Source of the DNA: a virus
Taxonomy: Duplodnaviria; Heunggongvirae; Uroviricota; Caudoviricetes
Length of the DNA stretch: 11,569 nt
Virus record (IMG/VR): IMGVR_UViG_2671180283_000020
Reading direction: 5' to 3' (one strand)
Of this stretch, positions 1-11,367 are shown piece after piece (within the stretch, counting starts at the first letter, position 1; each line of letters begins with the position of its first letter). The position numbers and the translations under genes are program-made. A model generated the notes under the pieces. That model was given only the letters and a program-made list of their open reading frames with translations, was not told the DNA's origin and searched no databases.

Positions 1-356
1 CGGTCGCCTGCGGCAACGGCTTTCCGGCTGATGGTCGTACGGACCTTTTTACCCCGGAGAACACCGGCAAGTCCCATAACCGCCATGAGACGTGCCACTG
101 TACATCTGGCCACCCTGATTCCTTCCCGTAACAACTGACGCCAGACTTTACGCACACCGTACACCTGATGATTTTCATCGTATACGCGCTGTATCTCTCT
201 CTTCAGCCAGTCGTCGTGCTGCGCACGGGCACTGCGTTTATCCGGATGATGTCGCTGTTGCTGACAATGGTAATACGTTGACGGGGCAATATGCAGTTCG
301 CTGCATACCGGTCCGACCCCGTACTGCTCACGCAGCTTATCCAGCAGTGGCATCAT
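1..356 (-). CDS. IS3-family transposase OrfB, N-terminal part only (truncated by window edge); normally made as an OrfAB fusion by -1 frameshifting
   Basis: Reverse-complement translation from 356 gives [79 protein letters not shown]..., which matches my recollection of IS629/IS1203 OrfB. The frame is open to position 1. Confidence 0.85.
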
Positions 357-679
357 TTTTTCCAGAGGCGGTCGAACTCCGCCTTCGCAAAATAAGCGGA
401 AGCCTGGCGAAGGATATCGTTACTGCGGCGCAGTTCACGATTTTCACGTTCCAGCTCTTTCAGACGCTGACGTTCAGCGCTGGTGAGCCCACCATCACCG
501 CCCCCGGTATCCCGCTCATGCTGGCGAACCCAGACACGCAGAGTCTCCGGCGTACAGCCAATCTTTGGGGCAATGGAACAAATTGCCGCCCACTGTGAGT
601 CATATTCATCCTGACTTTCCAGAACCATACGAATCGCCCGCTGACGGACTTCGGGGGAAAAACGAGTATTTTTAGTCAT
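353..679 (-). CDS. IS3-family transposase OrfA (HTH/leucine-zipper subunit), IS629/IS1203-like
   Basis: 108-aa [26 protein letters not shown]...[36 protein letters not shown]. The stop overlaps the orfB ATGATG, and a GAGG Shine-Dalgarno sits upstream of the ATG. Confidence 0.9.
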
Positions 680-6308: not shown

Positions 6309-6583
6309 ATGGAGACTGTTTTTGACGCACTGAAAGCAATGGGAAAAGCCACATCCATAGAACTTGCTGCGCGCGTGAAGAAGTGCTGAACGAACTATGG
6401 GAACTGAAAAAGGCTGGTTTTGTTGATAAAAGCGCGTACACCTGGCGTGTGGCTGATAACAACGTTCAGCAGGAACAGCCAGCGCAGGCAGAACTGCCGG
6501 AAGAAACCACCACAATGAGTGAAGTTATGCAGCGCATACTGGCATTTTATCAGGGAAATGTTCGATATTTTAGACGTTACTAG
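6309..6583 (+). pseudogene. Small winged-helix-like prophage gene split by a frameshift (rem-position gene): 26-codon N-terminal ORF 6309..6389 and a C-terminal ORF in another frame reaching the stop at 6581..6583
   Basis: GGGAGG Shine-Dalgarno 6 nt upstream of the ATG at 6309. Frame 0 reads [26 protein letters not shown] then stops; the adjacent frame reads (E)[27 protein letters not shown]... from about 6380. The two pieces together look like one small DNA-binding protein. Confidence 0.5.
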
Positions 6584-6975
6584 ATTAAAGAGCATTAGTT
6601 CAGATGTGAATTGACATTGTGTGGCACAGGGTTGGGCTAGCGTGGGGGTTTGCTTTGTGTAAGAAACGGATGCTCTGCAAATTACTACTAATGCTTAATG
6701 TTAGTCTGATCTGCTCCCCGATGATTAATACACCGCTATGTTAGTAATGTCTGTAGATCGCTGTGTGTTGCATCCATCGGTTGACCCCACAGTCCAAACC
6801 AGACTGTCAGCTTTGATTCGATTCTATCTACTCAACCTGTCAGGTAATGTCTGAGCTAATACACAGAGTACGGCTATCGCGAACTTTAAGCTAGGTATCT
6901 GATACGCACCGTTCACTTGTTTGTACTTCTTGCACTGACTAGCTATCGTGCGCAGTTATTTATAGGTAATCTCCA

Positions 6976-6984
6976 GTGTATAAT
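6976..6984 (+). promoter_or_regulatory. Candidate -10 element (TATAAT at 6979..6984 with TG immediately upstream) for the 281-aa gene
   Basis: gtgTATAAT about 38 nt upstream of the ATG at 7023, followed by AGGAGG Shine-Dalgarno 6 nt before the ATG. No good -35 hexamer found. Confidence 0.4.
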
Positions 6985-7022
6985 TTTCCAACTTATGGGA
7001 GATTGTAAAACAGGAGGAATAT

Positions 7023-7868
7023 ATGAGGAAAAAATCGTTTGGACGTTGCCCGTTTGATTTCGACGAAGATGTAAAAAAAATAGCCGCGATAAATAAATAT
7101 ATCCATGCGAAATTTGAGAGGCATAAAAATAAAATAGATAACCTAAAGGGGGTGGAACAAAAATTGATGGTTTTACATTACTTTAATGTACTGAATGAAC
7201 TTAGTAATCAGGCTATATTTTCTTTGAGTACCGGAGCCTTTTCAGCATCGGAAGTATTAACTAGAGTTATAATGGAACAGGCTGCCAATCAATTTTATAT
7301 AGCAATTGATGATGGAAAAAATGCACAAGCATTACTCAAGGGTAGTAAGAAATTAGTTCATAGTAATGGGAAACGGTGGCTGGAGTGTTTAAAATCCAAA
7401 GAAATGACTAATCCAGCAGCAGATGAAAGGATTCGTATCGGAAAAGAGCTAACTGATATGTTTAATAGATTGTGGCCAAATACACCTGAATATCCTGGAA
7501 CCAAAAAGCTTTTCGAAGTAATTGGCTGGGAAACACACTATCATGCCTATTACGTCCCTCTTTGTGATTCAATACATACATTCTCTGATGATATGGCAAA
7601 TATAGTATCTCTATATAATGCAATCCAAAGCGATAAAACTACTGCTATCGAACTCACTCTTGCAGTTAAACAAGAAAATAAACGGCTGGCAATTTATAAT
7701 GTCGTAATTGCTATTGGCCTGCGGTGTGAGGCCTTAGTAAATGTATTTAACTCTTTAGGTTATCGAGATATTATAACTGAAATGGCGCCAACAATAGATG
7801 CAGTCAACCAGATTATAATTCGATATGATGATTTCGAACATTCCAGAATTTTTATTGTCAATAATTAA
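7023..7868 (+). CDS. Orphan hypothetical protein (281 aa), AT-rich, predicted largely alpha-helical; candidate defence/abortive-infection cargo gene of unknown family
   Basis: Long ORF in AT-rich DNA with a near-consensus AGGAGG Shine-Dalgarno. No Walker, HNH, HEPN or other motif recognised by eye. Located between the prophage replication module and a decayed integrase plus the Septu operon. Confidence 0.75.
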   Translation: MRKKSFGRCPFDFDEDVKKIAAINKYIHAKFERHKNKIDNLKGVEQKLMVLHYFNVLNELSNQAIFSLSTGAFSASEVLTRVIMEQAANQFYIAIDDGKNAQALLKGSKKLVHSNGKRWLECLKSKEMTNPAADERIRIGKELTDMFNRLWPNTPEYPGTKKLFEVIGWETHYHAYYVPLCDSIHTFSDDMANIVSLYNAIQSDKTTAIELTLAVKQENKRLAIYNVVIAIGLRCEALVNVFNSLGYRDIITEMAPTIDAVNQIIIRYDDFEHSRIFIVNN

Positions 7869-7936
7869 TTGGCAGAATTCGTACATGCACAACAACTAGT
7901 TATAGTTGACCTATTTCGCTCTTGAGAGACAACCAT

Positions 7937-7969
7937 ACTCAAATCTTCCACATTGCAGGAGATTTGAGT
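7937..7969 (+). other. Perfect 10-bp inverted repeat ACTCAAATCT / AGATTTGAGT with a 13-nt loop, immediately upstream of the integrase-remnant ATG
   Basis: Read directly from sequence. The loop/right arm contains GGAG (7957..7960), the Shine-Dalgarno for the ATG at 7970. No U-tract follows, so not a classical terminator. Confidence 0.5.
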
Positions 7970-8490
7970 ATGAATACGTCACCGAGGAACAAAGACAGTA
8001 TCATAGGCCCAAAAAGACCACTTCAGATATCTCATATCTGGGGGCTCCAAATCCGGCTTGAACTGGAAGGTAAAACGCGTGATTTAGCTCGGTTTCAAGC
8101 AGAGCTACGGTGCTGCAACTGAAAAACTGGCAGTCCTATCCAATTTGAGATAACCAAAGGGACAAGAGAAGCTGTTTCTGCATTGATAAAGCTTGGCAAT
8201 TTACGCAGTAAAGACTACTTGTTCCGATCTCGGGTCGGTACTAACCAACACATATCAATCCTGCAATATAACCGAATCTTTCATAGGGGGGAGAAAAGCT
8301 TGGTCTCGAAGATTCGCTTTACAGCACACATTCCATGAGAAGAACAAAACCTTGCCTTGTCTGCAAGAAAACTAAGAATCTCCGGGTGATCCAACTTCCG
8401 TTGGGCCATAAGAAAACGGAAAGCACAGTTCGTTATCTGGGTATAGAAGTTGATGATGCATTAGAGATCTCTGAATCGATCGAAGTCTAA
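7970..8490 (+). pseudogene. Decayed small tyrosine recombinase (integrase catalytic-domain family): in-frame TGA at 8120..8122 and a frame change near 8336
   Basis: Three consecutive segments translate to MNTSPRNKDSIIGPKRPLQISHIWGLQIRLELEGKTRDLARFQAELRCCN* / KTGSPIQFEITKGTREAVSALIKLGNLRSKDYLFRSRVGTNQHISILQYNRIFHRGEKSLVSKIRFTAHIP* / RRTKPCLVCKKTKNLRVIQLPLGHKKTESTVRYLGIEVDDALEISESIEV*. These carry recombinase hallmarks (TRDLA Arg, H-x-x-RRTK, LGH, VRY tyrosine). The last two segments lack any Met, so they are absent from the ORF track. Confidence 0.65.
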
Positions 8491-8902
8491 AGCTGTCAGG
8501 GCTGCAGCAGCAGCCCTGTGCCAAGAGCGTACCAATATATGTCTCAAAAAATTGGGCACAGGTCAATATCAATACCAACAACTCTGATTGTGCTCATGTG
8601 ATTTACTCCTGTAGAAAACGCAGACAGTAAAAATATTTCACTGGCTGCTTCAGACAGGGCGTCCATCATATCATTACATAACAATAGCGGGGCACGATAT
8701 CTAGACATGCAGCAACGATGGACATAGAATGAGTACAATCAAAAGCATGTTTAACTACTTTAATTTAAAAATCTTAGAATCTTAGGTGTAGAGTTCAATA
8801 CTTAGTTACATACCCTTTTGAAAGCATCACAAATCATAACTATGAGCCTGTTAAAGGCATAGGTATTCTTAATTAAGAGCATTTTAATGAGAGAAAAATA
8901 AA

Positions 8903-10276
8903 ATGAAAAGACTATATTATACCCATCATGATAGTCGAACCTTAAAACTTGCTATAGAAGGTGATGTTTCTGATAATGCGAATATTTTTACAGTAATTGT
9001 AGGTAAAAATGGCGTTGGAAAAAGCAGATTGTTATCTCAGATTGCTAAAGACTGTATTCAAGATGTTCATTTCTTGAAAACTTTTAATCCATTATTTGAC
9101 AGAGAAATAACACCAAAGTTAATTGCCGTATCTACCAGCCCATTCGATAAATTCCCTCCAGGGCGTAGGTCATTAAATCACCAAAGGAAAGAAAATAATT
9201 ATCGCTATGTGGGTATGCGTGGAGAAGGCCCCTTCGGCGTATCAAATGCCGTATCCCTTTTATCTTCAGCAGCGAGAGGTTGGCTAGAGAAACTTGCTTA
9301 TTCAGAAAATCCTGCAAATTTACTCGATGTTTTTCATTCTATTGATTTTGAGCCCCATATAGAGTTTGTATTTAAACCAACTTACAACGGACCGGACACT
9401 CCTGACTATAACTTCATTGGTGTATATTCAGATGAGATATTAACGGAAGTTAAGGAGTTATATTTAAAATACAATATAAAAATTGACAGGAAGAATATTG
9501 AGAGTCTCTTAAAGTTAAACTCCGAATCACGTCATGATATTTACGAAGCACTGGTTGAAATTAATCGATTTGAACCTGAACGTAGGGCTGTAACCTTGTC
9601 AGTCGATTTTACCAATGGTGAAACATTGGTTGGCTCGACTTATGCGAATAATTATTTTTCTAGATCAATTCTTAAACTTATGAACGCTGGCTTCATGAGA
9701 TTGATGGATATGCGACTCATAAAAAAAAGCTATGGTCCCATGTCACTTAAACGTGCGAGCTCGGGAGAACAATGTTTATTAGTGATGTTGCTTGGAATTG
9801 CAGGGCATATAACTGATGGTTCTATAATATTAATTGATGAACCGGAAATAAGCTTGCATCCTCGATGGCAGGAAGAGTTTATCATTATGTTAACAAAAGC
9901 ATTTTTAACTTACTCAGGTTGTCAATTCATAATTGCAACTCATTCACCACAAATAATATCCAATTTGCCGAATAAAGGTTGTTATATAACATCTTTGTCG
10001 AAAAGTTATCTTTATAAAGCAAAATACTTTAGCAACCGGTCTGCAGACTATCAACTTGCGGAACTATTTGATGCCCCTGGCATTATGAATGAATACATTG
10101 CCAGGTTAGCTTTCAATTTACTTTCAAAAGTTAAGACTGCTAAGTTAGTAACAGATGATAATTGGCGTGAATTAAAACAACTCCAACTTCTCCTTGAAAA
10201 CGTTAATAGTAATGACCCTATTAATGAACTCGTAAATTCCGTATCTCAGGTGTGTGAAATTTATGCCAAAAATTAA
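8903..10276 (+). CDS. ptuA: Septu-like PtuA: ABC/OLD-type (AAA_15/AAA_21-like) ATPase, 457 aa
   Basis: Walker A VIVGKNGVGKSRLL near the N-terminus, ABC-signature-like SSGEQ, Walker B IILIDEPEISLHP, H-loop IIATHSP. AT-rich gene that overlaps the downstream HNH gene. Confidence 0.8.
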   Translation: MKRLYYTHHDSRTLKLAIEGDVSDNANIFTVIVGKNGVGKSRLLSQIAKDCIQDVHFLKTFNPLFDREITPKLIAVSTSPFDKFPPGRRSLNHQRKENNYRYVGMRGEGPFGVSNAVSLLSSAARGWLEKLAYSENPANLLDVFHSIDFEPHIEFVFKPTYNGPDTPDYNFIGVYSDEILTEVKELYLKYNIKIDRKNIESLLKLNSESRHDIYEALVEINRFEPERRAVTLSVDFTNGETLVGSTYANNYFSRSILKLMNAGFMRLMDMRLIKKSYGPMSLKRASSGEQCLLVMLLGIAGHITDGSIILIDEPEISLHPRWQEEFIIMLTKAFLTYSGCQFIIATHSPQIISNLPNKGCYITSLSKSYLYKAKYFSNRSADYQLAELFDAPGIMNEYIARLAFNLLSKVKTAKLVTDDNWRELKQLQLLLENVNSNDPINELVNSVSQVCEIYAKN

Positions 10277-10898
10277 AAATCCAATTAGATTCAGCGCAGA
10301 GTCATTAGATATTATTGAGAAAAAATTGTCTTCTCCAGATTTTAAGCATACCAACTGGGGAGATGATGATTTGCAAGTTCTCCGTGCAGAAATTAGAAAT
10401 CATTACAGAGAAGAACAAAAGCTAGAATGTGTATATTGTCATGAGCCTATTGGGGTAAGAGCTGCACAAGCTGCTCCTATAGAGCATATTGTGCCAAAAT
10501 CTCAATATCTATGTTTTATTTTTGAACCTAAGAATCTATGTGTAGTATGTCCTGACTGCAATGAATTCAAAGGTAAAAATGAAGTGTTATTTGAACCCGT
10601 AATAAATGGGGGGCGGCGCAAAAACTATCCAACTGCATCTGCATCATTTCGCATCGTTCATCCACATATAGATGATTATGAGATGCATATTATAAAAGCA
10701 AATCGTGTTTATGTGGACAAAACACCTAAAGGGCACTATACCATTGGAATATGTAAACTAAATAGATTTTTTCATTATTTTGGGATGTGTGATGAATTTG
10801 TTAATGATGCAAAAATTGCTGAGGCAAATGAAAATTTTTTCAAAAAAGGTAGTATTACTACTAATGAATTATTGGATGATGACATTCATTTGATTTAA
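10263..10898 (+). CDS. ptuB: Septu-like PtuB: HNH endonuclease, 211 aa from the ATG at 10263 (214 aa if the GTG at 10254 is used)
   Basis: HNH-type motif CVYCHEP...APIEHIVPKSQ...CVVCPDCNEFKGKN...VHPHID (Cys pairs plus His/Asn/His). Overlaps the ptuA 3' end by 14-23 nt, implying one operon. Confidence 0.8.
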   Translation: MPKIKNPIRFSAESLDIIEKKLSSPDFKHTNWGDDDLQVLRAEIRNHYREEQKLECVYCHEPIGVRAAQAAPIEHIVPKSQYLCFIFEPKNLCVVCPDCNEFKGKNEVLFEPVINGGRRKNYPTASASFRIVHPHIDDYEMHIIKANRVYVDKTPKGHYTIGICKLNRFFHYFGMCDEFVNDAKIAEANENFFKKGSITTNELLDDDIHLI

Positions 10899-11094: not shown

Positions 11095-11165
11095 AAGCCC
11101 CAGTTAACATTACGCGTCCTGCAAGACGCTTAACATTAATCTGAGGCCAATTTCATGCTAGACAC
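11095..11165 (-). ncRNA. sok: Putative Sok-like antisense RNA (boundaries approximate)
   Basis: Inferred from the minus-strand promoter at 11170..11198 and from the hok/sok paradigm, where Sok is antisense to the mok translation-initiation region. Neither end is clearly defined by a terminator in the sequence. Confidence 0.3.
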
Positions 11166-11169
11166 ATGT

Positions 11170-11198
11170 AGGTTAGCCTCTTACGTGCCGGAAGGCAA
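11170..11198 (-). promoter_or_regulatory. Candidate sok promoter on the minus strand (-35 TTGCCT, 17-bp spacer, -10 TAACCT)
   Basis: Reverse complement of 11193..11198 is TTGCCT and of 11170..11175 is TAACCT. It sits between the upstream ATG at 11155 and the hok ATG, the arrangement I recall for the R1 sok promoter (TTGCGC / TATCCT). Confidence 0.45.
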
Positions 11199-11211
11199 GG
11201 AGAAGCAGGCT

Positions 11212-11367
11212 ATGAAGCAGCAAAAGGCGATGTTAATCGCCCTGATCGTCATCTGTTTAACCGTCATAGTGACGACACTGGTAACGAGGAAAGACCTCTG
11301 CGAGGTACGAATCCGAACCGGCCAGACGGAGGTCGCTGTCTTCACAGCTTACGAACCTGAGGAGTAA
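11212..11367 (+). CDS. hokD: Hok/Gef-family type I toxin (51 aa), HokD/RelF-like
   Basis: MKQQKAMLIALIVICLTVIVTTLVTRKDLCEVRIRTGQTEVAVFTAYEPEE with AAGGAG Shine-Dalgarno 9 nt upstream. Near-identical to recalled HokD (RelF). The track ORF 11155..11367 is an in-frame upstream extension from the mok-equivalent ATG. Confidence 0.85.
   Translation: MKQQKAMLIALIVICLTVIVTTLVTRKDLCEVRIRTGQTEVAVFTAYEPEE

Follow-up and report, generated by a model that had tools for sequence, protein, structure and literature searches.

A mobile DUF5677-family gene next to Septu in a prophage, a candidate anti-phage conflict protein

Single-protein abortive-infection factors of the HEPN type include AbiV, AbiD/F and RnlA-like proteins. 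The Z/fun slot of P2-like prophages is cited as an antiviral-gene locus, and six of the eight randomly chosen loci of unassigned function in P4 hotspots were protective (P2/P4 hotspot papers PMC9122126; PMC13586616). In Bacillota, DUF5677 is statistically enriched directly downstream of the serine recombinases that mark defence loci (RADS, PMC12632615). Here, we analyzed a DUF5677-family gene at positions 7023-7868 of an 11,569-nt stretch of viral DNA (Caudoviricetes; IMG/VR record IMGVR_UViG_2671180283_000020), the whole of which is called the window. An initial annotation had described this gene as an orphan with strong expression signals in a prophage defence slot. We found a real gene under purifying selection, which moves horizontally between unrelated phages as discrete and self-sufficient cargo, and we tentatively propose that its product acts in anti-phage conflict.

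The DUF5677 gene and its recombinase module

The 281-aa window protein matched Pfam DUF5677 (PF18928) with 37.4 bits for a gathering cutoff of 27.1 (E=3.4e-9, residues 49-195 of 281), and PHROG 4167, of category 'unknown function', with E=1.3e-175 (its residues 1-276 align with positions 1-276 of the 280-position profile). In E. coli, including the enteropathogenic (EPEC) strain E2348/69, the RefSeq label is "DUF5677 domain-containing protein". Orphan status and the absence of any family, as initially annotated, are thus ruled out. The protein is a member of both families and, since neither has an assigned function, this membership gives it a name without an explanation; the gene has an existing catalogue entry as DUF5677 and the function of the family is undescribed. 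We searched 1.84 billion representatives exhaustively with HMMER and obtained 54 clusters at E<=1e-3, with members that are nearly all free-standing and 270-300 aa long. All of the 44 aligned homologues matched DUF5677 (best E=3.4e-20), and other Pfam families were matched by at most one member each.

The chance of a 281-codon open frame is ~4e-10 at the local base composition, and the dN/dS ratio was 0.22-0.34 across four contexts. None of the E. coli records listed or inspected flags the DUF5677 coding sequence as a pseudogene; one copy was split by an IS3 insertion. The coordinates, the AGGAGG and TATAAT sequences and the AT-rich composition given by the initial annotation were all reproduced: the near-consensus Shine-Dalgarno sequence AGGAGG (7012-7017) lies 5 nt ahead of the ATG at 7023, the TATAAT -10 box (6979-6984) lies within the leader of the gene, and the GC content is 0.34-0.37 over the gene versus 0.45-0.60 over the upstream replication genes. 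The gene belongs to a module of ~1.8 kb (~6706 to ~8500) made of a leader, DUF5677 and a small tyrosine recombinase, with the following features:

6706..7022, + strand: 5' leader of the DUF5677 module, holding the TATAAT box and the Shine-Dalgarno sequence; similarity to the P2-borne copies starts at ~6706
7023..7868, + strand: DUF5677-family gene with an ATG start, encoding a predicted all-alpha cytoplasmic protein of 281 aa
7934..7972, + strand: perfect 13-bp inverted repeat (CATACTCAAATCT / AGATTTGAGTATG) with a 13-nt loop, covering the Shine-Dalgarno sequence and start codon of the recombinase
7970..8490, + strand: decayed small tyrosine recombinase gene, catalytic domain only (RefSeq 'frameshifted; internal stop')
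Module positions: window 6706-8500; L018, a P2-borne copy, 12003-13880; L021 8001-9552

The identity between the window and the P2 copies was 90% over the leader, 92% over the coding sequence and 85% over the recombinase, versus 60% and 42% outside the two limits; the fall from 90% to 60% at ~6706 was seen in the alignment with the P2 copy of an avian pathogenic E. coli (APEC). Complete recombinase copies are 194-200 aa long and match Pfam Phage_integrase at ~1e-18. Compared to the complete APEC copy, the window remnant has 85% identity and an 82-nt deletion. The same DUF5677-recombinase pair was found in a Buttiauxella metagenome-assembled genome. The 'decayed integrase', previously taken as a separator between the gene and Septu, is therefore the degraded partner of DUF5677 in a two-gene module, as the P2-type and Buttiauxella pairs indicate.

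Out of 5,426 E. coli genomes, 57 carry DUF5677; the copy is P2-type in 38 of these and lambdoid-type in 19. In the P2 type, copies with 92% nucleotide identity occupy the Z/fun slot, between the tail-fibre assembly and tail sheath genes. Thirty-six complete E. coli genomes (including the type strain ATCC 11775, S88 and PCN033) have DUF5677 followed by a recombinase without pseudogene flag, and the recombinase is truncated in IHE3034 and AST215. All of the lambdoid-type copies (19/19) have the recombinase pseudogene, Septu and hokD. In strain A30, an unrelated segment of ~320 nt replaces the module in the same P2 slot. Since DUF5677 is intact while the recombinase is frameshifted or truncated in many genomes, selection acts on DUF5677 itself, independently of the recombinase. 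No intact phage genome of INPHARED carries a DUF5677 homologue (tblastn), and among plasmids a single 8.4-kb E. coli record was found, holding the same region. In strain 2013C-4974, one of the genomes with a frameshifted or truncated recombinase, the DUF5677 coding sequence is annotated as intact, and an IS3 element and an integrase fragment stand where the replication genes lie in other copies; this prophage is thus probably no longer viable.

The 36 full modules of E. coli are collinear and none is inverted, so phase-variable inversion by the small recombinase is not supported and was rejected. An identity as a FimB/FimE-like tyrosine invertase was rejected on this single orientation and on the NF007371 score, 22.9-25.5 bits for a cutoff of 222; the scores against the other NCBIfam Xer/invertase families were also far below their cutoffs. 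The inverted repeat at 7934-7972 is kept in the P2-borne copy (L018 13251-13289; 15 nt, 93% complementary) and could serve for translation occlusion, as a protein-binding site or as a recombination site. Imperfect inverted repeats bracket the module at 6622-6634 / 8511-8523 (12/13 nt) and 6936-6970 / 8673-8707 (27/35 nt), the P2-slot insert is bracketed by a 33-nt inverted repeat (79% complementary; L018 11969-12001 / 14386-14418), and a CAGACTGTCAG motif recurs. A hairpin with a 9-bp stem lies directly 3' of the recombinase remnant (~8504-8525). In ~780 further E. coli genomes, a ~90%-identical recombinase stands alone in other islands, as in L019, where it is beside an ETEC_3214-family gene. 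A 124-aa, very hydrophobic and probably membrane-embedded protein is encoded in the P2 Z/fun slot with or without the module (L018 13894-14271, - strand; L032 1931-2308, - strand).

The 317-nt leader is 90% identical between copies, versus 88% at third codon positions; since these values match, no extra constraint on the leader is indicated. It had no match in Rfam, an RNA fold z of -0.11 and no tandem repeats, with just two 10-nt direct repeats 100 nt apart. On these three scans an RNA antitoxin or riboswitch in the leader was rejected, and a type III toxin-antitoxin system (ToxIN/AbiQ-like) was rejected as the upstream tandem-repeat RNA antitoxin is missing.

Predicted structure and conserved residues

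Conservation was analyzed in the 44-sequence alignment of DUF5677 homologues. Five residues are invariant (R81, E85, F164, Y173 and H185), and nine others are conserved in at least 90% of the members (E77, L79, N89, W119, P158, S183, D190, N193 and Y225), all of them kept in the window protein. They form two motifs, E-x-L-x-R-x3-E-x3-N, with its polar residues on one face of a helix, and W-P-x4-(R)F-x3-G-x-E-x2-Y...S-D-S-x-H-x3-(E/D)D-x2-N. Judging from the residues conserved, a catalytic or ligand-binding pocket seems a better fit to this pattern than a scaffold. At position 268, 38 of the 44 members have a His and the window protein has the sole Tyr of the alignment; the E. coli/Buttiauxella clade departs from the family at two His positions, 86 and 268.

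The AlphaFold model of the window protein is all-helical, with a predicted local distance difference test score (pLDDT) of 87 and a predicted template modelling score (pTM) of 0.84. Comparison of the model with PDB and BFVD returned no specific relative, and the sequence/profile search of PDB sequences gave noise only (such as aspartate aminotransferase and glutamate mutase, E>=0.04). As initially annotated, the protein has no Walker A motif, no HNH signature and no clear transmembrane segment, the highest 19-residue hydropathy (1.58) falling within a long modelled helix. Close to the 3' end (7840-7868), the window has a T-run one T shorter than that of E2348/69, with a C-terminus IVNN* instead of YCQ*, and the altered tail is the lowest-confidence part of the model.

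We then considered a canonical HEPN RNase toxin, that is, an abortive-infection effector cleaving RNA through an Rx4-6H motif. The statement that the protein has no obvious HEPN Rx4-6H is literally incorrect, as R267-x5-H273 is present, and holds in substance: in the family this Arg is found in 6/44 and this His in 4/44 members. A second candidate would be R81-x4-H86, which exists in the 18 of 44 members with a His at position 86. The window protein has a Gln there and the family has H, Q, M, N, T or V, so a His at this position is dispensable. In HEPN motifs, the residue following the Arg is usually a polar N, H or D, in contrast with the hydrophobic residue that follows R81. No HEPN family was found among the Pfam matches of the 44 members, even at E<=1, Foldseek returned nothing, and in the fold comparison acyl-CoA dehydrogenases and de novo designed bundles ranked at least as high as HEPN structures. 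The protein may be a degenerate helical bundle of the HEPN type. The canonical toxin, a sub-case of the defence reading developed below, has in our estimation only the slimmest chance of being correct.

Genomic neighbourhoods of DUF5677

Family matches on both sides of the gene agree with its initial placement between the prophage replication genes and the Septu operon. Upstream, Pfam identified a cI-type repressor, a P22-Cro-type protein, YdaT, a DnaT-like O protein and a lambda-P-like protein. The other features around the module are:

6310..6583, + strand: truncated DUF1627 pseudogene (RefSeq on the identical region of E2348/69), the prophage-backbone edge of the AT-rich island
8903..10276, + strand: PtuA, the Septu ATPase (PADLOC PDLC00283, 1.2e-165)
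10254..10898, + strand: PtuB, the Septu HNH nuclease (PADLOC PDLC00325, 1.1e-83; Pfam HNH)
11155-11367: hok-family toxin open reading frame (ORF), hokD in matching genomes, directly after Septu

PtuA and PtuB constitute a complete Septu system downstream of the DUF5677 module. No PtuAB lies near the copies in P2-like prophages, Buttiauxella, integrons and other genomes, and on this ground DUF5677 was rejected as a third gene of Septu. DUF1627 genes without pseudogene flag hold the same position in related prophages, and the region from P/DUF1627 to hokD differs in every related prophage opened. Alternative cargo there includes a protein with an N-terminal nuclease domain like those of PADLOC PDC-M68A and of CBASS and Shedu effectors. 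An IS481-family element separates ptuB from hokD in E2348/69 and is missing from the window. At the other end of the window (region 278-1709), the ORF 353-679 (- strand) resembles by eye an IS3-family transposase orfA and abuts a 334-aa ORF without Pfam match (705-1709, - strand), which corresponds by coordinates to part of an 823-aa 'exonuclease' gene of the E2348/69 prophage. Since it covers part of this gene beside the orfA-like ORF, the exonuclease gene appears to be cut by an insertion sequence in the window strain.

We examined ~16 distinct neighbourhoods of DUF5677 homologues. In Vibrio parahaemolyticus (L015), DUF5677 (1290-2141) is flanked by two 120-nt repeats (1144-1263 and 2139-2258; TAACAA...GCGTTAG/T), in an array with at least 18 attC-like sites. 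In Aliidiomarina soli (L026), DUF5677 (159-1004) is followed by TAACAAG...GGCGTTAT at ~1002-1115, with more such sites downstream. Both regions (L015 1-12141 and L026 1-8893) are chromosomal integron cassette arrays with DUF5677 as one cassette in each; that it forms a single-gene cassette in these two genera independently argues for a protein that works alone. The other cassette ORFs of the two arrays mostly have no Pfam family on record, and the L026 array is cut upstream by an apparent 3' end of a transposase gene. On several chromosomes DUF5677 is a single-gene insertion. In Aliarcobacter it closes an integrated filamentous prophage, in which a 78-aa ORF without Pfam match ends 2 nt before the DUF5677 start (9762-9998 in both L008 and L016); in this lineage the ORF may be a partner transcribed together with DUF5677. 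An Arcobacter integrative element with type IV secretion system genes also carries DUF5677, followed in one variant by an Mrr-type nuclease. Further copies were found beside ParDE, beside a PLD nuclease and a zeta-like kinase, and adjoining an IS200-like transposase.

Possible functions and comparison with described systems

Our preferred reading is that DUF5677 encodes a stand-alone cytoplasmic conflict protein, acting in the lysogen and most likely directed against phages, through the polar pocket of its two motifs. We give it a probability of about 0.45. The gene reached E. coli as the ~1.8-kb unit of leader, DUF5677 and small tyrosine recombinase, which is located either in the P2-like Z/fun slot or, in the window, in the variable post-replication region of a Qin/Rac-like lambdoid prophage, beside Septu. 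In the lambdoid copy, the recombinase has decayed while DUF5677 was kept. Expressed from the lysogen, the protein may serve both the host and the prophage against other mobile elements, and its most probable role would be that of an anti-phage factor made of one protein, for exclusion or abortive infection. The active portion is predicted to be a polar site made from two conserved helices, with E77-x-L-x-R81-x3-E85-x3-N89 on the first, and a loop and helix N-terminus, S-D182-S183-x-H185-x3-(E/D)-D190-x2-N193, as the second part, supported by W-P158...F164...Y173. That the gene is undescribed, horizontally acquired and located among defence cargo stood up to the analysis; the anti-phage or abortive-infection function initially suggested for it draws on this context. 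A defence-slot label for the locations of DUF5677 is reasonable by association.

Several results weigh against this reading. The window protein had no match in PADLOC-DB v2.0.0 at E<=0.1, the defence-model match suggested as a check by the initial annotation thus being absent; over the 44 family members PADLOC gave isolated single-member matches at E>=6e-4, and no NCBIfam model matched the window protein. Its model resembles generic helical bundles only. The promoter falls short of the announced strong expression signals, of which the Shine-Dalgarno part was upheld: the -35 is poor (TTATTT, 17-nt spacing), the site fails a two-hexamer scan, leaving the -10 box only, and the 7 promoter-like sites of the region are no excess over the 8.9 +/- 3.3 expected in shuffled sequence. 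No terminator for the gene was found in a scan of the + strand. Compared to a prophage moron, an independent transcription unit of foreign composition with its own promoter and terminator, the gene has the deviant composition, a consensus -10 only and no + strand terminator found. A known defence gene is directly adjacent in only ~3 of the ~16 neighbourhoods, and ~6 of them (Aeromonas, Sulfurimonas, Burkholderia, Thalassotalea, Anaerolineae and the P0005 locus) have neither mobile-element nor defence genes. Finally, the Bacillota DUF5677 ORF challenged in E. faecalis with six Enterococcus phages is, by elimination from the text, outside the five protective ORFs (PMC12632615).

The same observations suit an accessory or lysogenic-conversion gene, with a stress, metabolic or host-interaction role, riding in variable slots that tolerate cargo. 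Several homologues are lone among housekeeping genes, functions of many kinds are found in integron cassettes and in the variable regions of prophages, and the missing defence profile and the negative distant homologue would be expected. Such a gene would, however, have to recur by chance of tolerance in slots that collect antivirals (P2 Z/fun, the Septu island), its rare and patchy presence (57/5,426) and its movement between unrelated phages speak against it, and neither a signal peptide nor a transmembrane segment hints at a surface or virulence role. We consider this explanation unlikely, though it deserves to be kept in view. Early and accessory phage regions also hold counter-defence genes, and DUF5677 lies in such regions of two temperate phage types and in a filamentous prophage, as would an anti-defence or phage-benefit gene that counters host immunity or competitors during infection or induction. 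Its integron cassettes and lone chromosomal copies have no phage around, the coding sequence is annotated as intact in the probably defunct prophage of 2013C-4974 and intact INPHARED phages lack it, which makes this role improbable.

DUF5677 might also be a partner of the recombinase, helping to move the cassette as an accessory or directionality factor, or being the payload in a phase-variable switch. A Phage_integrase ORF of 194-234 aa directly follows it in the 36 E. coli P2-type copies and in Buttiauxella, in Bacillota DUF5677 is enriched directly downstream of serine recombinases (PMC12632615), and imperfect inverted repeats bracket the module. Against this, DUF5677 is intact and selected where the recombinase is a pseudogene (19/19 lambdoid copies) or truncated (IHE3034, AST215), all 36 full modules are collinear, and most family members have no adjacent recombinase, some being bare integron cassettes; a partnership of this kind is very unlikely. 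Returning to the conflict protein, a more ambitious version would be a new single-protein defence family, with an all-helical catalytic fold without solved or viral relative, carried in enterobacteria by a self-mobilising mini-cassette with its own catalytic-domain-only tyrosine recombinase; it seems to us a long shot.

Should DUF5677 turn out to protect, a compact family of single-gene defence would be gained, whose fold and active site have so far gone unrecognised. If the mini-cassette version is true, this would be a defence gene equipped to hop by itself from one phage hotspot to another; according to the recent P2/P4 survey, such a gene has not been seen. If it is not protective, it will be a reminder that position in a defence slot is insufficient for a defence label. 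The gene is easy to test, since it is present in well-studied strains (EPEC E2348/69, ATCC 11775, S88, IHE3034), P2 hotspots and Vibrio cassettes. Comparable hotspot candidates are many, and the coupling to a recombinase is an unusual feature among hotspot cargo; this pairing and the clean swap between P2-like and lambdoid prophages provide a concrete case for how such cargo physically moves.

Compared to the HEPN-type abortive-infection factors, the window protein is likewise free-standing, all-helical, borne by a mobile element, of similar size and with a conserved helix Arg, and some DUF5677 members have an R-x4-H. In contrast with these factors, Rx4-6H is unconserved in the family and missing from the window protein (Q86), profiles show no similarity and the likeness of fold is non-specific. 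With Septu, DUF5677 shares the AT-rich island and co-occurs in 19/19 lambdoid-type E. coli copies, but it is set off from ptuA by the pseudogene and ~1 kb. As a short, AT-rich and swappable insert in the same slot, the module resembles the P2 Z/fun and P2/P4 hotspot cargo (PMC9122126; PMC13586616), although DUF5677 is unmentioned in the texts of these two papers and in supplements of Rousset et al. 2022. Like RADS (PMC12632615), it links DUF5677 to a site-specific recombinase; in RADS this is a serine recombinase located upstream, in Bacillota, whereas here it is a small tyrosine recombinase located downstream, in Enterobacteria.

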